DNA of 64,000 bases from an uncultured Poribacteria bacterium. GTDB taxonomy: Bacteria > Poribacteria > WGA-4E > WGA-3G. The number at the start of each line of letters is the position of its first letter. Position 1 is the first letter of the stretch. This document shows positions 47,954 through 59,711 of this stretch, in pieces. Both the position numbers and the translations under genes were made by a program. The stretch is from positions 3,728,767-3,792,766 of the forward strand of contig OX638352.1 in the NCBI GenBank assembly GCA_951813545.1, in the 5' to 3' direction. Below the pieces are notes generated by a model. The model was not told the origin of the DNA, made no database searches, and was given only the letters and a program-made list of their open reading frames with translations.

Positions 47954-48676
47954 ATGAGTTCAATAATCATCCCTGTTGTAGGATTTGCATTTGTGGGACT
48001 GCTGTGGCTTTTCTTTAGACCGCCTTTCGGGAAAAATATTATTCGCATCAACACAGACCAACGGATTGTCGCGCTCACTTACGACGATGGACCAAATCCG
48101 CCTTATACTGAGCGGTTACTTGATGTCCTCGCGAAGCACAACGTCAAAGCCACCTTCTTCATGATCGGAAATCGGATTGAAAAGCATCCGGAAACGGTAA
48201 GTCGGGTTATCGCTGAGGAGCATCAGATTGGCAATCACTCTTACAGTCATCCGCTGCTGGGTTTCTTGCCACCTTTCTGTGTTCGACGACAAATTGAACG
48301 CACGGACGACCTTCTTCAGCAATACGGCATTGCAAAGGATAGTGTATTTAGAGCACCAATGCTAACACGGTTTCTACCAGTCGCTTATGTCCTCGCGAAA
48401 GGTGATCGAACACACATCAGTTGCAATGTATGGAGTTGGGATTGGACGACGCAGAATCCGGACAAGATCACTGAGACGGTATTGAAAAAAACACTTTCAT
48501 CTACAGGGGCGGGTTCGATTATCGTCCTACACGATGGGAAAGCGGAAAATAAGGACGCAAACCGTTCAGGGACAATCGAAGCAACAGACCGAATCATCAA
48601 CGCACTGAAACGGGACGGCTACCGGTTTGTACGGTTGTCGGATGTCAGAAGAATGGCAATCAGCAAGAGAGATTAG
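47954..48676 (+). CDS. Polysaccharide deacetylase (CE4) with N-terminal anchor
   Basis: ALTYDDGP, IGNHSYSH, FRAP and IIVLHD motifs. Confidence 0.9.
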   Translation: MSSIIIPVVGFAFVGLLWLFFRPPFGKNIIRINTDQRIVALTYDDGPNPPYTERLLDVLAKHNVKATFFMIGNRIEKHPETVSRVIAEEHQIGNHSYSHPLLGFLPPFCVRRQIERTDDLLQQYGIAKDSVFRAPMLTRFLPVAYVLAKGDRTHISCNVWSWDWTTQNPDKITETVLKKTLSSTGAGSIIVLHDGKAENKDANRSGTIEATDRIINALKRDGYRFVRLSDVRRMAISKRD

Positions 48677-48759
48677 ATTACAAAAACCTCATTTCTTATG
48701 GCTAACTGCTATTCCGCTGAGCAGAGAACGCGCTTCCACTGTAAGCAGGTAACTGCTCC

Positions 48760-50391
48760 TCAGTCTGCAGTTTCCACAGAAACTTTTGCGTGGAAAGCGT
48801 TTATATCGCCTATCTCACTCCATTGATCTCCAGTCACGCATAATTTAAAGCGTTGACCACGAGCGAACTGATACGTAATTTGTCCAGATTCACCGGGGAA
48901 TATCCCCCAGACTCTGGTAAGTGCGCCAAGTGCCTTCTTATATTCATCGCTTTCTTGGCTGTTCCATTCTGTAGGATCAATGCCATCAGGTGCTTTTTCC
49001 GTCGGGAGTTTTTTGTCTCCGTCGAGGAGATGGAAAATCCCTATTCCTTTGTCTCTTCCGACTTGGATGTTAGCAGTGAGTGTGCCACTCCCTTCAAACG
49101 CCGTGGCATCAATGTAGACAACAGTGTAATCCTGATGTGCGAGCATCGGGGTACGAAAAGTATCTACGACCTCCTTTGAGGGTTGCTCGGGTGTAAGGAT
49201 AAGATCGCCCAACCCAGGACGTTTTCCTTCCAAGGACTCCCTGAGAAATAGTAGGTAAGGTTCGGCATGGTCATCAGACTCCGTCAGTTTGTCAAGGAAC
49301 ATATAAGCCGCGTGGTCGGGTTCCGTCATATTGTCAAGAAATATATTGTAGTCTATGCCACCCATCGCTTCAAACTCCGGTGAGATAACCAAACAATCCA
49401 CTGGTGAACCCTTTTTCCAGGTTTTGATAATTGCTTGTGCTAAGGGATGGCTTGTGTCGAAGATCTTACCTTCGCGTTCGCGTCGCTTGGCAATCGGTTC
49501 TCGCAAACTCGGCGTTCGTCCTAACTCCGCGTTGGGTACCCACGCGTTGATGAAGTTTTGGTTCAAGAATTCTATGATTCGATCTTCAGAGAGCTCAACT
49601 GCCCTCAGGATTTTACCACTCCCTCAGCACGCCTCGTCAAAGAGCGGCCCATCCACTGAGATAACATGGATCGGTTTCCCTTGTGCGGGTGCCATCTCCA
49701 ACACTTCCTCCAGCGATACCCAGTTAATTTTCTGAAACTTGTAGAAACGTGATGACAGCGCGCGTTCGACTTCTTCCTGCGTGATTGATGCGGTGAATTC
49801 GACATCAGGCAGTTGCGTACCAACAGAGATCTCCATTTTCGGACAAAAACCGATCTCCGCGGCAGTCCCTTCATCTCGCGTCCAACCCGCATCGAAGTTC
49901 AGTGTCGTTGGCGGCACGTACATTTTAAAGGAGACGATCTTCTCTTGGAGTCGGTCAACGACGAGATGTCCAGCAAATTGTGATGGCGTAAACTTACCGC
50001 TCTCCATGATGAATTCTGCATGAATACGGAACACAATGTCAGCAAGTTCATCATTGTAAGCACGCAAGCATCCCCACAATCCACGAGAATCTCCCGAATC
50101 AATGGTCAACTTCAGTCGTGGGTTGGGATGAAGCTGCTTCAGTAGTGTTAGTACGCCTTCTTCTTGAATTTCCCAACATTCACCCACCGAAACCGATTCC
50201 GATGGGAGGAATGCTTGGAAAACCGAGGCCGGATACTGTTTTTCTGGTTCAGCAACCTGCAGATTCGCCAACTCGTCCCATTCTACGTGGAAGTTGTATT
50301 GCGTGTATTCAATCGGCGCGATGGAACCTTTGACGTTGACTTCTGCGTCGCCGTCAAGATTAAGCGTAATTTTGTTTGATAATGTATTCAT
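48760..50391 (-). CDS. Selenoprotein N-like protein, copy 5 (543 aa; Sec TGA at 49624-49626)
   Basis: ORFs 49624-50391 and 48760-49566 are in frame; junction reads DEAC-U-GSGKILRAVELSEDRIIEFLNQNFINAW. Confidence 0.88.
49589..49606 (-). promoter_or_regulatory. Candidate bacterial SECIS, copy 5
   Basis: GAGGGC-AGTTGA-GCTCTC hairpin starting 17 nt after the UGA. Confidence 0.6.
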
Positions 50392-50392
50392 T

Positions 50393-52348
50393 TCAATTTT
50401 CCTCTACAGAAATCTTTAGGTAGAAAGCGTTCATGTCCCCTTTTTTACTGAACCAGTCGCCGGTGGCACCCAGTTTAAAAACTTCGCCTCGCTCAAAACG
50501 ATGTCTGATTGTTGTCGCTGTATTGGGTTTAATCCCCCATGCCGAGACGATCGCATCAGGTATCCCTTCTGTCGGGAGTTCGGTGTCGCTATCAAATAGA
50601 TCAAACGACCCTGCCGCGTCTGCACTTCCGACCTGAACATAGATAGTAAGCGTGCCACCGTCTTCAAACGCCGTTGTATCTATATTGACGACAGTGTAAT
50701 CTTGATAACCGTTTCCCGGTGCCCGAAAAAGATCCAATATTTCTGGTGACGATTGGGCACTGTCGAGTACAACACGCAAGCCAGTTGAAGGTGTGCCTTC
50801 ATTTGAATTTTCCTGTACGGAAACTGTTGCGCGAAAAGCGTTGACACACGGTTCCGCTCTATCCCAATCTCCGGTAGCACCCAACTTAAAAAGTTGACCG
50901 CGATCGAAGCGGTGCATGATCTGCCTTGTAGCACCGGATGCAATCCATGTCCGAGCAAGCGTGTTTTTAGGTGTTTTTTCTTCCGTGGAAAGTTCACTAT
51001 CGCCGTCAAACAGACAGAACCCACCTTCACCTTCATCTCTCCCAGTTTCAATGTCAATAGTGAGGGTGCCACCATTTTCAAAGTCCGTCGTATCAATCAA
51101 GACAACGGTATAATCTTGATAGCCGACCGTGGGGGTCCGAAAAACGTCCAACACTTCCTGCGAAGGCGACTCTCTGGTGAGGATGAGGTTCCCCAATCCG
51201 GGTTGTTTCCTGGCTAAGGCTTGCTGGAGGAATATGAGATAATATTCATACTGCGGGAGTCCTTTGCGATTACTGTCTTCATAGAGCTCGTTGACGAGTT
51301 GTCTGCCCATCAATTCAAGATCTGGCGAGATAATCAAACAGTCTACGGGTGAATGTTCTTTCCATCCCTTCATGACGGCTTCTGCCAAAGGATGTTTTCT
51401 ATTAAACAGTGCTCTGGATCCGTCTTCAAATCTCTGCGTCGCATAGTCACGCATTACGGATGTCCGCTCTAATACGATATTCGACACCCAGGTATTAATG
51501 AAATTTTCATTTAAGAATTCAATATTTTTATCATAAGAGAGGACACCTGCCCTCAGACCTTTGCCGCTCCCTCAGCACGCCTCATCAGTGAGCGGGCCAT
51601 CTATTGAGATAACATGAATCGGCTTCTGTTGTGTTTGTGCAATTTCTAACGCCTGCTCCGGCAGCACCCAGTTAATTTGTTCTGATTTATAGAAACGCTG
51701 TGTTAGGATGCGTTTCGCTTCTTCATCGGTAATGGAATCCCCTATGAATTCGACATCTCGGACTGGGTTCTGTGTTCCGACACGGAGTTCCATTTGCTGG
51801 CAAAGACCGCTATCGATAATAGAATATTTTTCTTGCTTCCAACTAACATCAAAGTTTATTGGACCCTCAGGAACGTACATCTCGAAAAAAGTAACCTTCT
51901 CTCCGGTTCGGTCAACCACAAGATGTCCCGTAAACTGCGAGGGTGTAAACCTGCCATCTTCAAACTTGAACTCTGCATGAATCCGAAACACAATGTCGGC
52001 GAATTGATCGTTGTACGCGCGCAGGCATGCCCATAACCCGCATGAATCACTGACATTGATGCTCATATCTAAATTTGGATTCGGATGCAGTTGCTGAAGT
52101 AATTCCGTTACACCGTCTTCCTCAATCTGCCAGCATTCACCCACTGAAACCGATTCCGATGGAAGAAATGCTTGGAAAACAGATGCGGAATACTGCTTTT
52201 TTGGTTCGGCAACCCGTAAGTTTGCCAATTCATCCCACTCAATGTGGAAGTTGTTTATTGTATATTCAATCGGGGCAATGAAGGCTTTGACGGATACTTC
52301 TGTGTCCCCATCAAGATTAAGCGTGATTTTGTTTTCTAAGGTTTCCAT
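50393..52348 (-). CDS. Selenoprotein N-like protein, copy 4 (651 aa; Sec TGA at 51572-51574; duplicated C-terminal domain)
   Basis: In-frame join DEAC-U-GSGKGLRAGVLSYDKNIEFLNENFINTW. Confidence 0.9.
51539..51554 (-). promoter_or_regulatory. Candidate bacterial SECIS, copy 4
   Basis: GAGGGC-AGGT-GTCCTC hairpin starting 17 nt after the UGA. Confidence 0.65.
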
Positions 52349-52349
52349 G

Positions 52350-53912
52350 TCAGTTCTCCTCTACAGAAATTCTTGCCTGAAACGCATTGGTGCTGCCTTT
52401 CTCACTTCTACCGCAACACCCGGTAGCACCCAATCTAAAAAACGCACCTTGGTCAAAGCGATGTGTGAGTTGCCCTGTCTCATCAGGCTCAATCCATGCA
52501 GAAGCAAGTCTCTTATCTTTAGGCACCCGTTCATCCATTGGAAGCTCGCTGTCACCATCAAACAAATAGAAGTACCCTTCCGCATCCGCTCTACCAGTTT
52601 CAATATCAACGGTTAACGTGCCACCATTTTCAAACGCTCTTGTATCAATGACAACGACTGTATAATCCTTATACCCAACCATCGGTGTTTGGAAAACATC
52701 CATGACCTCCTGAGAAGGTTCTTCACTGTTCAGAGTGATGTTCCCCAATCCGGGTTGCTTTCCCTCCAAGCACTCCTTGAGAAACATAAGGTAACCCTCC
52801 TCCCACCGGAGTTTTCTACGCCAGGTGTCGTCAATAAAATCATTGACAAGCAGCCTACCCATCAATTCAAACTCTGGTGAAATGACGAAACAATCCACAG
52901 GTGACCCTTTTTTCGATCCAGTTTTCCAGCCGCTTATGATCGCTTGTGCCAACGGATGGCTTGTGTCAAACGTTTTCCCCTCGCGCTCGCGTCTCTTCGC
53001 AATCGGCTCTTGCAGACTATGGATACGCCCTAATTCTGCATCTGCTATCCAAGTGTTGATAAAATTTTCGTTCAAGAATGCTATGATTCCATCGTCATAG
53101 AGGACACCTGCCCTCAGGCATTTGCCACTGCCTCAGCACGCCTCGTCCAAAAGCGGTCCACCTACTGAGATGACATGAACCGGTTTCTGTTGTGTGGGTG
53201 CCATCTCTAACGCTTCCACCAACGATACCCAGTTAATTTGTGCCGACTTGTAGAAACGGAGCATCAGCGCGCGTAGTGCTTCCTCTTGGCTGATAACTTC
53301 TGCGAATTCGGCACCTTCCAAAACATCTCGCGCTTCTGCATGGAGTTCCATTTGCGGGCAAAAACCGATGTCCGCCCCGCTGCGTTCGTCTCCAAATAGT
53401 TTCCAACGTACATCAAAATTCAGTGTGGTTTCTGGAAGGTGCATCTTGAAGGCAGCAACTTTCTTTTCTAACCGGTCAATAACCATATATCCGGTAAACT
53501 GCGATGGGGCAAACCAGCCTTTTTCTAAAACGAATTCCGCATGGATACGGAACAAAATCTCAGCAAACGCATCATTGTAGGCGCGTAGACACGCCCACAA
53601 ACCGAAAGAATCCTCCGCAGCAACGTCCAACTCCAATTGTGGGTTTGGACTGAGTTGTCGCAACAGTGTTAACGCCCCTTCTTCTTCAATCTGCCAGCAT
53701 TCACCTACAGAGACCGGCTCCTGTGGCAAAAATGCTTGAAAAACGGAGGCAGGATATTGCTTTTCGGGTTCAGCAACCCGCAGATTCGCTAATTCGTCCC
53801 AGTCCACGTGGTAGTTGCGTTGCGTGTATTCAATCGGCGCGATGAAACCTTTGACAGACACTTCTGCATCATCATCAAGCTTAAGTGCAATTTTATTGTT
53901 GAAAGTTTGCAT
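52350..53912 (-). CDS. Selenoprotein N-like protein, copy 3 (520 aa; Sec TGA at 53133-53135)
   Basis: Start MQTFNNKI aligns with the paralogs; join DEAC-U-GSGKCLRAGVLYDDGIIAFLNENFINTW. Confidence 0.9.
53100..53115 (-). promoter_or_regulatory. Candidate bacterial SECIS, copy 3
   Basis: GAGGGC-AGGT-GTCCTC hairpin starting 17 nt after the UGA. Confidence 0.65.
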
Positions 53913-54048
53913 TTTTCGGTATGAACTTCCTTTTCGGTATAGGATACCATTGCCATTGGAAAGAGGCAATGATTCGCTTATACACATTTTTGGATGCACT
54001 TATATATACTAAAGTTTGGACGATTCGTGTTGCATGCAAGTTAAGTTT

Positions 54049-54576
54049 TCAAAGTGTTTCGCTCGCCTCTTTAAGCACCGCGTCGATCAAACCGCTACTG
54101 AGTCGGAAGCCTTTTTCCTGGAGTTGCAATAGTAACGGTCGAACCGCTCTAATTTTGCCCTTCTTTTTCGCAAACAAAAGAAAACCTGCTACACCGGCTG
54201 CTTGCAATCCTAAAGATTGAGCAACTTTTCGCCCGCGTAGGTCATCAACAAACACGTTCGTTACATCCAGTTCCGTTGCTAATACCAGTGTTTCAGCCTC
54301 TCCTTTATCTAATGTCGCCATTAGCATTGTAACTGCCGATGTGTTAGAAACGGTTTGTCTTTCAACAAAAGTCGCCTGTCGCAATTCTTTTTCACCCGGT
54401 CTCCCTTCTCCGCGTTCAACAACTTCCTCCCAAACTTTGTCCGCGATGATCAGCGTTCCGACAAGTGCTTTCAAAGTGTCCCACTGTTGGCAAAGAGAGA
54501 TACCAATTACAAATGAAGCATCCGCGACAACTATCAACTTGCTTGCCTCGGTTACTTTGTTTGTTGTATTAAGCAT
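54049..54576 (-). CDS. PIN-domain (DUF3368) putative toxin
   Basis: VVADAS, LDKGEAE, VDDLRGR and GFRLS motifs. Confidence 0.85.
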   Translation of the reverse strand: MLNTTNKVTEASKLIVVADASFVIGISLCQQWDTLKALVGTLIIADKVWEEVVERGEGRPGEKELRQATFVERQTVSNTSAVTMLMATLDKGEAETLVLATELDVTNVFVDDLRGRKVAQSLGLQAAGVAGFLLFAKKKGKIRAVRPLLLQLQEKGFRLSSGLIDAVLKEASETL

Positions 54577-54836
54577 TCGACAGCCTTCAATTCCTGTTGG
54601 ATTTCCTCATCATCGTATTCAGCAATCGGGATATCCTGCTGACTCAGAAGTCGAATAAAATCCCATAAGTGTAGTTCCGCCAATTTTGCAGCTTGCCCTA
54701 AAGAGAGAATGTTACGCTCGAAGAGAGAGATCGCAAGCAACCGTTTTGCCTCCTCAGTCAGTTTTTCTTGATTATAGCCGGAAATAGAAAGTGGAGTTGA
54801 AAGCTCATTAGGGACATCCAACGTGATAGAACGCAT
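54552..54836 (-). CDS. UPF0175 family putative antitoxin
   Basis: LAISLF...LSLGQAAKLA.....F..LL motif; overlaps the PIN gene. Confidence 0.85.
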   Translation of the reverse strand: MRSITLDVPNELSTPLSISGYNQEKLTEEAKRLLAISLFERNILSLGQAAKLAELHLWDFIRLLSQQDIPIAEYDDEEIQQELKAVECLIQQTK

Positions 54837-54996
54837 GATTCTTACCTCTATATCGCATTAAGGGTATCACCAAAATGTAGTTCGTTTTTGATTACAAAAC
54901 ACTGCCCATAGGTCCAGTAGCAGTATAACACTTTTCACAAGAAAACGTAATTTTAATTTCACTTTATCCAAACTTTAGTGTATAGCATCGCAAATG

Positions 54997-56682
54997 CTAC
55001 ATTGATTCAAGCTTTTCTGCTGGTTCTACAGAAATTCGTGCTTGAAAGGCGTTGACATACTCTTTCTTATCCATAAGTTCAGAAGAGACAATCACCAACT
55101 TAAAAACTTGACTCCGGTAGAAAGGATACGTAATTTGCGCCGTTCCACTGGGCGGAACATCCGTAGCATTGGCAATAGACTGGTCGTAACGCTGTCCGCG
55201 TTCTGCGGGGAATTTGATGTCGCTATCGTACAAATAGAACGAACCTGCGAGTTCGGCACTTCCGAGACGTATATCAATCGTGAGTATCCCACCCTTTTCA
55301 AACGCGGCAGCATCAATTGTTACAATGGTGGATTCCTGATAACCGACCTCCGGCGTACGTATAACGTCCACTACTTCCAACGTTGGCTGTGCGGTGCTTA
55401 GCACCACGTCCAATCCTGTTAAGAAAGGCTTGAAAGGGCTTTCTTGCTCCGAGATATCCCCTTCCTCACCTAATAGATATGCGAAAGAATTATCAGCACT
55501 AAATCCCGGATATTTATCTTTTAAGGCTTCCATGAGAAAGAGTCGGTAATTTTCCGCCCTTGTCCTTCCGCCATCCCAGTCGTGACCGTCATAGAGATAT
55601 TTATTCAAAGGGAGTTTCCCTTTCAATTCAAAGTCAGGTGATATAACGAGACAGTCCACAGGTGAGCGTTCGTGCCACCCCTTTTTGATTGCTTGTGCTA
55701 ACGGATGAGTAGTGTCAAACGATTTAGATTGGTGTGCGTACCTTTTGGCAATATATTCTCGCATATACGGTTTCCGTTCCAATTCAAAATTGGATACCCA
55801 TGTATTGATAAAATTTTCGTTCAAGAATTTGATGATGCGTTCATTCGCGAGGACACCTGCCCTCAAATCTTTACCGCTCCCTCAGCACGCCTCATCGGTG
55901 AGCGGACCATCGACTGAAATGACATGAACGGGCTTCTGTTGTGCCTGTGTCATTTCCAATGCTTCCCCCAGCGATACCCAGTTAATTCGTTGTGATTCAT
56001 AGAATCGCAGGATTAAGAGACGTTCGGCTTCTTCTTGTGTGATTGCGTCTGTGAATTCGGTGTCTTGTAGAACATCTTGTGTTCCAGCACGGAGCTCCAT
56101 TTGCGAGCAGTAGCCGCCATCTGTAATCCATCGGGGAGCGTCCCAACCTTCTAATGTCGTTTCCCAATGAACGTCAAAGTTAAGTGTGCCTGCGGGGAGG
56201 TACATCTGAAAGAAAACAATATTCTCTTGTGCCCGATTAATAATGAGATGTCCAGCGAACTGGGAAGGCGTAAACCAACCGTCGGTTAAGGCAAATTCCG
56301 CGTGAATGCGAAACATGATGTGAACAAGTTGATCGTTGTAAGCGCGCAGACATGCCCAAAGACCTTTAGCCTCTTCTATGCCATACATCTCCGCACGCAT
56401 TTCCAGAGAAGGATAGGGATGAAGTTGTTTCAGTAATTTTTGGACACAGGCTTGTTTAATTTCCCAACACTCACCTACTGAAACTGCCTCGGCTGGAAGA
56501 AAATCTCGAAACACAGACGTAGAATACTGCTTTTCTGGTTCCGCAGCGCGTAGATTCGCCAACGCATCCCATTTCCTATGAAAGTTGCCTGCGGTATGCT
56601 CAATCGGTGCGATGAAGGCTTTGACCGATACATCTGCATCCTCAGCAAGATTAATTGTGATTTCGTTTGGTAGCGTCTTCAT
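54997..56682 (-). CDS. Selenoprotein N-like protein, copy 2 (561 aa; Sec TGA at 55882-55884)
   Basis: In-frame join DEAC-U-GSGKDLRAGVLANERIIKFLNENFINTW. Confidence 0.9.
55849..55864 (-). promoter_or_regulatory. Candidate bacterial SECIS, copy 2
   Basis: GAGGGC-AGGT-GTCCTC hairpin starting 17 nt after the UGA. Confidence 0.65.
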
Positions 56683-58206
56683 TATTAATTTCCTCTACAG
56701 AGATTTTTGCCAGAAATGCGTTGGTACACACTTCTCCTTCGTCCCAATATCCTGAAGCACCTAACCTGAAAAGTTGTCCTCGGTCAAAACGGTGTGTAAT
56801 CTGCAGTGTATCTTCGGGTTCACCCCACGTCCCAGTGAGTGCATCTTTCGGTTCTTCTTCATCTATGGAAAGTTCGCCATCCTCGTCAAATAGATAAAAC
56901 TCACCGTCACCACTGTCCCTGCCGATTTTAATATCAATGGTTAATGTCCCGCCGTTTTCAAAAGATGTGACATCAATCACGACAACGGTGTAATCTAAAT
57001 AACCGACAGTTGGTGTCCGAAAAACGTCCAGCACTTCCTCTTCAGGATGCTCACGGGTAAGAACAATGTTCCCCAATCCGGGCTGTTTCCCTTCGAGGGC
57101 TTCCGTAAGGAATGTGTGATAATATTTCGATGGAGAGATATTATCCCTTGCGAGTTCATTAAACTGTTGTTTACCCATCACTTCAAATTCGGGTGATATA
57201 ACGAAGGAATCCACCGGCGACCCTTTTTTTGAGCCGATCTTCCATCCCCTCATGATGGCTTGTGCCAAAGCGTGGGTTGTATCAAACGGCTTGCCTTCGC
57301 GCTCGCGTCTTTTCGCGATCGGTTCTCGTAAACGACGGACACGTCCCAACTCAGAGTGGGGGACCCATGTGTTAATGAAATGTGCGTTCAAAAATTCAAT
57401 AATTTCGTCTCTTGAGAGGACACCTGCCCTCAGACCTTTGCCACTGGCTCAGCAGGACTCATCGAAGAGCGGTCCATCTATGTGATCGCGTGGATCGGTT
57501 TCTGCTGTGCCGGTGCCATTTCCAAAGCCTCCTCCAGCGATGCCCAGTTAATGTGCTGAACCTTGTAGAAACACGATATCAGTGCACCTTCGGCTTCTTC
57601 TTGTGTGATTGACGCGATAAATTCGACATCCTGAGGTAGTGTCCCTGTGCAGAGTTCCATTTGAGGACAATAGCCAATATCGGATCCGATTGTGTTCCGA
57701 TAAGTATCAAAGTTCAGCGTCCCTTTAGGAACATGCATCTGAAAAAATGTGATTTCTTTTTTGATTCGGTCAACAACGAGATGACCAGCAAACTGGGAAG
57801 GTGTGAACCTACCATCTGCAAATTCAAACTCGGCATGGATGCGAAATACAATGTCAGCAAATTTCTCGTTGTAAGCGCGTAGACATGCCCACAAGCCATA
57901 CGAATCCCCGTTATTGATGTCCAAATTCAATCTCGGATTCGGGTGAAATTGCCTTAGTAATTCGAGCACACCCGTTTCTTGAATCTCCCAACATTCACCC
58001 ACCGAAACCGGTTCCGATGGAAGGAATGCCTGAAAAATGGATGCGGCATGTTGCTTTTCTGGTTCGGCGACTTGCAGATTTGCCAATGCCTCCCACTCTA
58101 CGTGAAAGTTGTATTGCGTGTATTCAATCGGTGCGACGAACCCTTTAAGGGAGACTTCTGCGTCCGCATCAAGATTGAGTGTGATTTTGTTGTTCAAAGT
58201 TTTCAT
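56651..58206 (-). CDS. Selenoprotein N-like protein, copy 1 (Sec TGA at 57449-57451; 1-nt frameshift at ~57480, either error or pseudogene)
   Basis: KPIHAIT/[I]DGPLFDESC-U-ASGKGLRAGVLSRDEIIEFLNAHFINTW; restoring one A (ACA ATA) restores the frame. Confidence 0.8.
57416..57431 (-). promoter_or_regulatory. Candidate bacterial SECIS, copy 1
   Basis: GAGGGC-AGGT-GTCCTC hairpin starting 17 nt after the UGA. Confidence 0.65.
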
Positions 58207-58208
58207 TG

Positions 58209-59711
58209 TTATCCATCCTGCGTTGTTCTTGGGATGATGTCGTGAACACCGCCTTCACGAATACTTGCTGAAGAGACTAACACAAATCTCGCTTTTTGAC
58301 GAAATTCCGGTAGCGATATCGCCCCACAATTACATAGAAGTGATCGGATTTTTGCGAGGGTCGTTTTCAAATTATCGTTCATTTTTCCCGCATAAGGCAC
58401 ATAGGCATCGGCACCCTCCTCGAACAATAATTCTGTACCGCCGCCTTCGTGGTAGCGTTGCCAATTAGCAGCTCGCTTTGTTCCTTCTCCCCAATATTCT
58501 TTTACTGTATTCATACCAAGTTTTCTTAGTTTACTTGGACTTTCATCAAATCTCGCAAAATATCTGCCCATCATCACGAAATCAGCACCCATGGCGAGTG
58601 CCAAACCGATATGATAATCTTGGAATATACCACCATCTGAACAAATCGGCACGTAAACACCGGTCTCCTTCAAATACAGGTCCCTTTGCCGGGCGACTTC
58701 AATGACAGCAGTTGCTTGCCCACAACCGATTCCTTTCTGTTCCCTTGTTATACAAATGGCACCCCCACCGATCCCTACTTTTACAAAATCAGCACCGGCT
58801 TCTACCAAATACATAAATGCATCGCCGTGAACGACATTCCCGCCGCCTACTTTCACAGTATCGTTGTACTCATTTTTAATAAATCGAATGGTGTCTGATT
58901 GCCATTCTGTATACCCTTCGGACGAATCAACGCAGATAATATCAACACCTGCTGCTACCAGTGCTGGTACTCTCTCTTTATAATCTCTTGTATTAATTCC
59001 GGCACCTACCACGAGTCTTTTCTGCGAATCTACGGATTCAAGTGGATTTTTTTTATGGTCATCGTAATCTTTCCTGAAGACCAGATGTACCAGTTTACGA
59101 TTTTCATCAATAATCGGCAGACAATTTATCTTGTGTTTCCAAATGAGGTCGTTGGCATCCTCAATCGTAATTCCCTTTTGACCGACAATTAGTTCGGGAA
59201 ACGGGGTCATGAATTCGCTTACTTTAGCGTTTAGATCTACTCGACTCAGTCTATAGTCCTTATCCGTTATGAGTCCGAACAGTTTTCCTGAAGACGAACC
59301 GTCTTCGGTTATGGGAATCGTCGAGTGTCCTGTTTCTTCGGTAAGTTTCACGACATCTGCTATCGTGCTATCACGCTTTAAATTTGAGTCGCTGACGACG
59401 AAACCTGCTTTGTGACTTTTAACTGTCCGGACCATTGCTGCCTGCTCTTCAATACTTTGGGACCCATAAATAAAGGAGATCCCGCCCTGTCTTGCGAGTG
59501 CGATTGCCAAATTGTGGTCCGAAACGGCTTGCATGATGGCTGAAGCAAACGGAATATTCACTTCCAGAGAGGGTGGTTGCTGCCCTGCTTTAAACTTCAC
59601 CAGAGGGGTTTTCAGGACAACGTTTTCAGGGATACAATCCTTCGTGGTTAAGTTGGGTAAAAGCAGGTACTCGCTGAAAGTCCGGCTTGCTTCCGAAAAA
59701 AAGTGAGCCAT
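58209..59711 (-). CDS. guaB: Inosine-5'-monophosphate dehydrogenase (with CBS domains)
   Basis: [27 protein letters not shown] (catalytic Cys), SDGGI and MMGRYFA motifs. Confidence 0.95.

Follow-up and report, generated by a model that had tools for sequence, protein, structure and literature searches.

A tandem array of selenoprotein N-like genes with in-frame UGA codons in a Poribacteria genome

Introduction

What do five neighbouring bacterial genes encode when every one of them is interrupted at the same place by a UGA codon? This question is raised by a 64,000-nucleotide stretch of DNA from an uncultured Poribacteria bacterium (GenBank assembly GCA_951813545.1, contig OX638352.1; the whole stretch is hereafter called the window), which holds a tandem array of such genes, named c1 to c5. 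A preliminary description of the window had read them as selenocysteine-containing orthologs of selenoprotein N (SELENON), expanded five-fold, and had pointed to host-symbiont gene transfer or a eukaryote-like symbiosis factor. Our analysis leads to a partly different answer. With a probability that we put at roughly 85%, the five genes are bacterial members of the SELENON family, in which the internal UGA is translated as selenocysteine (Sec) and which were duplicated within Poribacteria, not recently imported from a sponge.

Mutations in SELENON underlie a group of human congenital myopathies, and the chemistry and the clients of the protein are poorly defined. In current accounts, SELENON orthologs are placed in vertebrates and some invertebrates (2026 review, PMC12839072), and an algal survey reports SELENON in a few algae (PMC7539508).

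Results

Five paralogous genes share one in-frame UGA

Open reading frames (ORFs) were listed with TGA read as U, whereby pieces split under translation table 11 were joined. A single open frame then runs through the TGA in c1 to c4, with one internal TGA each, while the fifth copy is off by 1 nt, in agreement with the earlier observation that the pieces of four copies are in frame. The five TGA positions and the break motif reported earlier were all recovered on the minus strand (Table 1), the motif ...GPLxDE[A/S]C-U-[G/A]SGKxLRA...FLNxxFINxW being present in 5/5 copies. The genes are well diverged: the intact copies are only about 54% identical to c4.

The interruption is conserved in other genomes. 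Scanning one genome per species yielded 74 distinct loci, all from Poribacteria or 'uncultured bacterium' metagenome-assembled genomes (MAGs), and the nearest ones (80-87% identity) are all from Poribacteria MAGs. TGA occupies the same aligned codon in 207/207 tblastn matches that cover it (74 Poribacteria loci plus the window; 212 matches in all, of which 5 fall short of the UGA site). Such a conserved position is far beyond chance. Elsewhere in this genome TGA is a stop: it ends c1, c2 and c3, and selA, selB and the IMP dehydrogenase gene are open under table 11. Hence, c1 to c3 each carry a true TGA stop downstream of the TGA read as Sec, in the same transcript direction. After this terminal TGA comes one base and then the ATG of the next gene, a spacing that suggests translational coupling, and the reading frame of c5 overlaps the start of c4 by 32 nt. 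For c3, the ATG at 53912 was taken as the start; an upstream GTG at 53999 is likewise open.

Table 1. Positions of the array genes, their hairpins and related loci. Positions without a prefix are those of the window; G and C prefixes denote genome and contig. Sec TGA, the internal TGA aligned with the selenocysteine site.
Feature	Position	Strand	Remarks
c1, SELENON-like selenoprotein gene (predicted)	48760..50391	-	543 aa; Sec TGA 49624-49626 = U256
c1 stop codon, TGA	48760-48762	-	
c1 SECIS-like hairpin, shifted-register variant	49589..49606	-	GAGGGC / loop AGUUGA / GCUCUC; 17 nt after UGA
c2, SELENON-like selenoprotein gene (predicted)	50393..52348	-	651 aa; Sec TGA 51572-51574 = U259
c2 stop codon, TGA	50393-50395	-	
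c2 C-terminal ~130-aa module, two tandem copies	about 50396-50800 and 50801-51220	-	
c2 SECIS-like hairpin	51539..51554	-	GAGGGC-AGGU-GUCCUC
c3, SELENON-like selenoprotein gene (predicted)	52350..53912	-	520 aa; Sec TGA 53133-53135 = U260
c3 stop codon, TGA	52350-52352	-	
c3 SECIS-like hairpin	53100..53115	-	
DUF3368 gene	54049-54576	-	between c4 and c3; outside the selenoprotein family
UPF0175 gene	54552-54836	-	overlaps the DUF3368 gene; outside the selenoprotein family
c4, SELENON-like selenoprotein gene (predicted)	54997..56682	-	561 aa; Sec TGA 55882-55884 = U267
c4 SECIS-like hairpin	55849..55864	-	7 pairs including flanking U-G; -9.3 kcal/mol; z -2.3
c5, SELENON-like gene	56651..58206	-	frameshifted by 1 nt at about 57479-57481; Sec TGA 57449-57451
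c5 SECIS-like hairpin	57416..57431	-	
selD and selB/tRNA-Sec loci	G000:C1:3617452-3618375 and C1:5668552-5670975		coordinates listed jointly
Second array	G000:C1:4386869-4394755	+	loci L101, L111, L107, L104, L119
Paralog pair	C1:2277367-2283796		

Homology extends over the whole SELENON core

The product of c4 (P0001) served as the query in protein searches. A word-indexed search through 5.8 billion proteins returned 86 matches, among which the only named one from outside Poribacteria is a fish selenoprotein N isoform X2 (E 6.4e-14). An exhaustive HMMER search of 1.84 billion representatives (clusters at 50% identity) gave 452 matches with E up to 1e-3, including a wombat SELENON record filed as 'EF-hand domain-containing protein' (UniRef A0A4X2KGP4). 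BLASTP aligns c4 residues 76-295, and with them the Sec site, with this record (E 8e-30, 31% identity), leaving a 2-residue gap exactly where the wombat gene model lacks U-G. When a profile of ten bacterial members was aligned to the same record with hhalign, the probability was 99.9% (E 8.4e-33, 314 columns), and P0001 residues 47-389 were matched with wombat 197-581 of 588, all of it beyond the EF-hand region and on to the C-terminus. This full-length profile alignment, proposed in the preliminary description as a check, covers the whole SELENON core.

The motif likeness noted earlier also holds when wombat, mollusc and fish proteins, and not the human one, are taken as the reference: FRIHAEF, F.PSQF.GH, PQMEL, DDQSC, LNEKFISTW and Y.EFL.E are found in the animal sequences. 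Mollusc SELENON ORFs stop at ...DDQSC, that is, they are cut at their own UGA. The window genes can thus be described as homologs of SELENON of the Sec type, but 'ortholog' was too strong a word. They are paralogous members of a bacterial branch that lacks the animal N-terminal anchor and EF-hand.

What the window proteins share with animal SELENON is the whole conserved core, with FRIHAEF, PSQF.GH, QMEL, C-U-GSG[KR].LR, LNE.FI.TW and Y..FL.E, the predicted Sec directly after a Cys, and an RNA hairpin after the UGA, as in the human Sec redefinition element (SRE; PMC2248747, PMC12936836). On the other hand, they begin at the core, with neither a transmembrane anchor nor a Pfam EF-hand in front of it, and at the C-terminus they carry an additional module of about 130 aa, absent from the animal proteins, in one copy or, in c2, in two, which explains the 651 aa of c2. 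They show no export signal, whereas the animal protein faces the lumen of the endoplasmic reticulum (ER; PMC12839072). Moreover, the hairpin is of the bacterial in-frame kind and not a Sec insertion sequence (SECIS) in a 3' untranslated region (3'UTR), and many paralogs per genome stand against one animal gene. The same C-terminal module ends a Peptidase_S9 (prolyl-oligopeptidase-family) protein (P0236) and a protein with an extracytoplasmic function (ECF) sigma domain (P0229), both from metagenomes. A PDB profile match of this module to 8zvk_A (E 0.024) was too weak for use.

Pfam and NCBIfam scans of four copies returned only a sub-threshold match of c2 to BrnA, which was dismissed. Little can be read from such empty searches, since the animal SELENON proteins, too, have no Pfam match except the EF-hand, as seen in the starfish protein.

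The family is widespread in Poribacteria and in unnamed metagenomic proteins

A search of the same genome with c4 gave 28 matching pieces, corresponding to about 16 loci; a single in-frame TGA is present in almost all of these. Hence, the tandem array of five genes is real, but a five-fold expansion understates the case. Apart from the second array and the paralog pair (Table 1), six further loci are scattered in the genome. Signal peptides or a lipobox are seen in three paralogs (L124, L103, L106) but not in six others, nor in the five window copies. Related genomes often have tandem arrays, too. Of 121 genomes sampled evenly across the phylum, 95 contain a match, with up to 17 matches per genome: 79/81 in the family of this bacterium, 8/9 and 7/19 in two sister families, and 0/11 in five further families.

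Among the 452 matches, many unnamed metagenome clusters bear bacterial lipoprotein or signal peptides. These forms (for example L131, P0164 and P0203), known only from metagenome gene calls, have the same core and the same UGA position as the window copies. They differ by a length of about 390 aa, a lipobox or signal peptide and no C-terminal module, by DDQSC-U as in animals against DE[A/S]C-U in the window, and by their place in the animal half of the tree (see below). In the JGI metagenome contig L131, the lipoprotein form reads ...GALDDQSC-TGA-GSGRLLRAGLL... in one frame.

Cys-type homologs (P0103, P0105, P0116, P0123) also keep the core and show ...ESC-C-GSGK... at the site, with Cys for Sec. 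One of them, P0105 (668 aa, metagenome), carries N-terminal sigma-70 regions 2 and 4, fused through a hydrophobic stretch to the Cys-type SELENON-like domain. This fusion hints that the domain may act as an extracytoplasmic sensor in some bacteria; the sigma regions suggest such a sensing role there, of which the window copies show no sign.

The array is placed away from the animal sequences

A FastTree phylogeny was built from 105 N-domain rows with 4 animal sequences, and an IQ-TREE phylogeny from 63 rows, chosen afterwards to span the first tree, with 9 animals. Both are unrooted and include no sponge sequence. These trees bear on the proposal of a recent transfer between sponge host and symbiont, by which an animal SELENON gene would have been acquired and then amplified. 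Several facts fit this proposal. SELENON has been described as an animal protein that also occurs in some algae (PMC12839072, PMC7539508), the sponge Amphimedon has one SelN (PMC3473315), and Poribacteria live in sponges. In addition, the Atlas has a cluster called 'Putative selenoprotein n 1 (Fragment)' that bears the label 50% Eukaryota although the phylum found most often in it is Poribacteria; in public records, sequences of symbionts may have been filed under host names.

However, one clade with 100% support, on a long branch, unites the nine animal sequences (mammal, fishes, amphioxus, starfish, molluscs); it lies in a half of the tree shared with unnamed DDQSC-U proteins having lipoboxes, leucine-rich repeats (LRR) or signal peptides. 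The window copies belong to a Poribacteria clade with 96-98% support in the other half of the tree (motif DDESC-U or DEAC-U), where four further paralogs of this genome make up a second cluster. Both clusters lie among unnamed proteins with bacterial export signals, and the nearest neighbours of the Poribacteria clade from outside the phylum are the Cys forms P0103 and P0105, the latter being the ECF sigma factor fusion. For ten unnamed proteins of the animal half, a listing of cluster members gave no taxon names, and the bacterial nature of these proteins is taken from lipoboxes, signal peptides and fusions. A tree constrained to unite the animals with the main Poribacteria clade is 44.7 log-likelihood units worse and is rejected by the approximately unbiased (AU) test at p-AU 0.0176, for a group named after the tree was seen. 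The in-frame hairpin described below is likewise of a bacterial kind, as opposed to the 3'UTR SECIS of the sponge gene (PMC3473315). Finally, the copies have no anchor and no EF-hand, and their composition is not anomalous, the G+C content of the array (0.44-0.48) being equal to that of its flanks.

With the animals apart from the Poribacteria copies in trees that hold no sponge sequence, the host-symbiont transfer and the eukaryote-like factor of the preliminary description are not sustained, and we regard a recent transfer as very improbable. As for eukaryote-like proteins of sponge symbionts, these are typically ankyrin, tetratricopeptide (TPR) and LRR repeat proteins. The array resembles them in having eukaryotic proteins as its closest named relatives and in belonging to a family that has expanded in a sponge symbiont; it differs in that the phylogeny is that of a bacterial family and the proteins are enzyme-like, not repeat proteins.

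Overall, the window copies look like part of an old and widespread bacterial family and not like a recent gift of the host. The array would have arisen by duplication inside Poribacteria, in a genome whose roughly 16 loci appear to be of exported and non-exported kinds. A bolder scenario, which we offer tentatively and consider rather doubtful, is that SELENON itself goes back to an ancient family of bacterial selenoenzymes that were exported lipoproteins. The animal SRE would then be a leftover of the bacterial SECIS on the L-R-x-x-V-L codons, and Poribacteria would have made the protein cytoplasmic, added the C-terminal module and multiplied it to about 16 copies per genome.

The residue at the UGA site and the selenocysteine machinery

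The genome (6.1 Mb) contains the complete Sec machinery, for which the preliminary description had advised a search: selA (601 bits), selB (351 bits) and selD (360 bits) all score above curated cut-offs, and a tRNA-Sec gene (selC; 78 bits against a gathering score of 47) lies about 440 nt after selB. The selD gene is a selenoprotein gene itself, with one in-frame TGA (...KCAG-U-ASK).

The residue at the site was surveyed in 91 representatives covering at least 170 N-domain residues, taken from 150 listed matches (of the 452) plus the fish protein. In 78/91 the protein record ends exactly at the Cys before the UGA site. The rest comprise 4 with Cys-Cys (the Cys-type homologs above, known as protein records and not as DNA), 1 with Trp, 1 with Ala, 2 animal gene models that skip the site and 5 partial sequences. 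By the usual computational criteria, a bacterial selenoprotein is predicted here.

One natural variant has lost Sec. In the exported paralog L128 (G001:C1:545086-546903), GGC (Gly) takes the place of the Sec codon and the hairpin is intact (GAGGGC-AACU-GCCCUC), while its 85%-identical ortholog L124 (G000:C1:2277367-2279076) keeps TGA. We read L128 as a natural case of Sec being replaced by a residue without redox activity. Public proteins of 553-606 aa with Gly at this place had been considered as translations of TGA as Gly; this was ruled out, since the DNA of P0010 (G001) has a real GGC.

A hairpin in the coding sequence is constrained at the RNA level

In all five copies a short hairpin follows the UGA (Table 1). 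Its 6-bp stem is formed from the L-R-A-G-V-L codons and starts 17 nt past the UGA; counted from the U of UGA, it lies at nt 21-36, with an AGGU loop. The apical loop of a usual bacterial SECIS is found 16-37 nt after the UGA and contains G/U. A stem-loop shortly past the UGA, as in this consensus, is thus present in the array. A eukaryotic 3'UTR SECIS has no place here, as the genes abut or overlap and leave no 3'UTR.

We collected 179 distinct 62-nt sequences, of which 148 were aligned. Paired cells amount to 96.3% in these 148, against 46-80% when the 3' partners are slid. Two pairs vary in composition: pair 24-33 is G-C in 106, G-U in 14 and A-U in 11 sequences, and pair 25-32 is G-U in 99, G-C in 28 and A-U in 13. 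The covariation score and the double-change count were reached by 0/500 shuffles, a figure that is no probability, the sequences being related. Codon usage is more telling than covariation. The Arg codon of the stem is AGG in 175 and AGA in 25 copies (200/200), whereas of 1867 other Arg codons in the same genes, up to 100 codons away on either side, 29% are AGR. Similarly, the opposite Leu codon is CTC in 192/199 copies, against 17.5% elsewhere. The hairpin is also found in the lipoprotein form L131, at the same place after the UGA, with 8 bp and a GGUC loop. A long alternative stem, joining the UGA region to the 3' arm, was rejected: it is 81% paired, shows no covariation, and 410-463 of 500 shuffles scored as high.

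Termination, read-through without selenium, or decay

If the UGA simply terminated, each locus would yield two separate proteins, the C-terminal half from an internal start. This is how public gene calls present the genes (P0021-P0089): the N-half ends with ...DEAC, the C-half begins with 'MRAGVL' at a Leu codon inside the hairpin, and both are named 'hypothetical protein' or not named at all; the 308-aa public matches are such N-halves. However, the two halves are in the same frame with conserved connecting codons in 207/207 cases. The Cys homologs are single proteins, and the alignment with animal SELENON, a single chain, runs across the site. The synonymous-codon bias of the stem has no explanation under simple termination, and the Sec machinery is present. 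We hold termination to be very improbable.

Alternatively, the UGA could be read without selenium, by near-cognate Trp or Cys insertion or by a local change of the code, with the hairpin as a general stimulator of read-through. A few relatives do have Trp at the site (P0091, ...ESC-W-GT; P0019), and the human SELENON hairpin after the UGA stimulates read-through at UGA as well as at UAG (PMC2248747). Against this, TGA is an ordinary stop in the same operon, a redox-active Sec agrees with the Cys-Cys homologs and with the conserved Cys that directly precedes the site, and a complete Sec pathway is kept, including a selD with its own in-frame TGA. This alternative is hardly credible.

Decay of the array into pseudogenes, kept by recent duplication only, is just as hard to credit: c5 is frameshifted in this assembly, one copy of the second array is interrupted by TAA codons and by about 950 bp of inserted DNA, and two unrelated genes have been inserted in the middle of the c1-c5 array, but four copies are intact at only about 54% identity to c4 and have therefore been under purifying selection since duplication, relatives carry an in-frame c5, and c4 orthologs at 74-91% identity are open in many genomes.

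The state of c5 was followed in sequencing runs. Its N-terminal ORF ends ...KPIHAIT-TAG at 57478-57480, and the frame with IDGPLFDESC-TGA-ASGK starts one base off, equal to a 1-nt deletion relative to the other copies. Parts of the stretch are held by 20 public runs, and contigs of two DNA-type and two metatranscriptome runs were aligned at a likeness of at least 90%; runs with less than 0.2 of the words were excluded for habitat, and contig depth was not used for gene ranking. An extra base at 57479, which puts both parts of c5 in one frame, occurs in one contig each of X1 (depth 60.8 of 106), X2 (22.9 of 22.9) and the RNA run X14 (58.6 of 58.6). Because contigs of three other runs carry this base, the frameshift is strain-specific, heterogeneous or an assembly error.

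Contigs from RNA libraries of one study cross the UGA in c4 (55716-56172), c2 (51440-51924) and c5 (57404-57673). They indicate that a related strain is present in the RNA library; they are no proof of read-through and may include DNA. Parts of the array without RNA-contig cover are uninformative.

A proposed mechanism

Under the SELENON reading, SelB with Sec-tRNA(Sec) would recognise the hairpin within the coding sequence (6-7 bp stem, AGGU-type loop, 17 nt past the UGA), while UGAs that lack a hairpin, such as those at the ends of c1, c2 and c3, would still terminate. The adjacent Cys-Sec pair, DE[A/S]C-U-[G/A]SGK, would be the counterpart of the animal SCUG redox motif. A similar pair is found in GCUG of thioredoxin reductase, and the resemblance of SCUG to GCUG has been pointed out (PMC12839072); unlike that of thioredoxin reductase, the pair is internal here and not C-terminal, and no homology of the window proteins to a solved structure or Pfam family was found.

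All five window copies lack a hydrophobic N-terminus and have no upstream room for one, as judged by eye and with no predictor. Inspection thus gives no sign of an oxidising compartment (ER lumen or periplasm) for them. Because they have no signal peptide, membrane anchor or EF-hand, they are most likely cytoplasmic. There they would probably act as thiol/selenol oxidoreductases that reduce an oxidised client by a selenenylsulfide cycle. In animals, the oxidised client is SERCA2. A near-invariant Cys in an SPVDC motif, about 77 residues past Sec (C344 in c4), could be a further redox partner. Paralogy and the extra C-terminal modules would diversify the choice of clients or partners.

Several observations weigh against this reading. 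The RNA-library contigs bear on presence only. The oxidoreductase mechanism is drawn from the motif; a PDB search by sequence with c4 gave no match, no Pfam or NCBIfam model matched, and the signal peptide was judged absent by eye. As for the hairpin, it is short and its conservation is partly due to the conserved peptide LRAGVL, changes on both sides occur in only one pair, and folding the whole 62 nt gives no advantage over shuffles (z +0.28 to -1.58). No clearly similar hairpin is seen in selD of this genome, which hence offers no internal positive control, and Rfam over 48600-58400 at E up to 10 gave two chance-level matches and no SECIS family. In addition, not every copy need be active, given the Gly of L128, the frameshift of c5 in this assembly and the broken copy of the second array.

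Discussion

Significance and earlier literature

What is new here is that a known selenoprotein family occurs in bacteria, where its recoding signal is of the bacterial type, its architecture and probable location differ and its expansion is unusual. No description of a bacterial SELENON was found in the literature within the reach of our search (supplements and subscription journals lay outside it), nor was 'selenoprotein N' found together with Poribacteria. In two reviews of prokaryotic selenoproteomes, the accessible main text mentions SELENON only in reference titles or as fragments of other words. The complete word 'SelN' is missing (0 occurrences) from the main texts of the Sargasso, GOS, ISME J 2016 and deep-Sep 2025 studies and of two review papers. 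In the accessible part of PMC4807772, 'selenoprotein N' stands only in a reference title, and its S9 Table could hold the family under another name. In public data, the name is already borne by at least one record, as the Atlas cluster mentioned above shows.

The findings matter in several ways. No solved structure of any SELENON family member was found by sequence search, and the bacterial branch, given its natural Cys versions and its probably soluble, cytoplasmic ones, could supply expressible and crystallisable proteins. It also offers a natural active-site series (Sec, Cys, Gly, Trp, Ala), and its gene neighbourhoods and fusions, such as those with ECF sigma factors, may serve as pointers to function. 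The evolutionary story of SELENON would change relative to the view of a protein of vertebrates and some invertebrates (PMC12839072), and a concrete hypothesis becomes available on how the human gene came by its unusual in-frame recoding hairpin. If the bolder scenario above is right, Poribacteria would have among the largest single-family selenoprotein expansions in any bacterium. Matches in 95 of 121 genomes, and up to 17 of them per genome, point to a heavy and so far unnoticed selenium redox investment in sponge symbionts. As for annotation, all public data examined present such a gene as two separate 'hypothetical proteins'.

Surroundings of the array and related loci

The array is flanked by IMP dehydrogenase upstream and by a polysaccharide deacetylase and an AIM24-family gene downstream, none of which points to a redox partner. 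A promoter and terminator scan gave nothing above shuffles. As a lead only, the Atlas also hints at Planctomycetota, with a score of 0.76.

The second array consists of two intact copies of different subtypes, a lone C-terminal module and the broken copy. Within the window, the pair of UPF0175 and DUF3368 genes splits the array and looks like a small mobile two-gene module. In RNA-library contigs of two runs, position 54001 is joined to 56693 with 81 other letters between (at a likeness threshold of 90; uncertain), and related strains may thus lack this gene pair together with c4.

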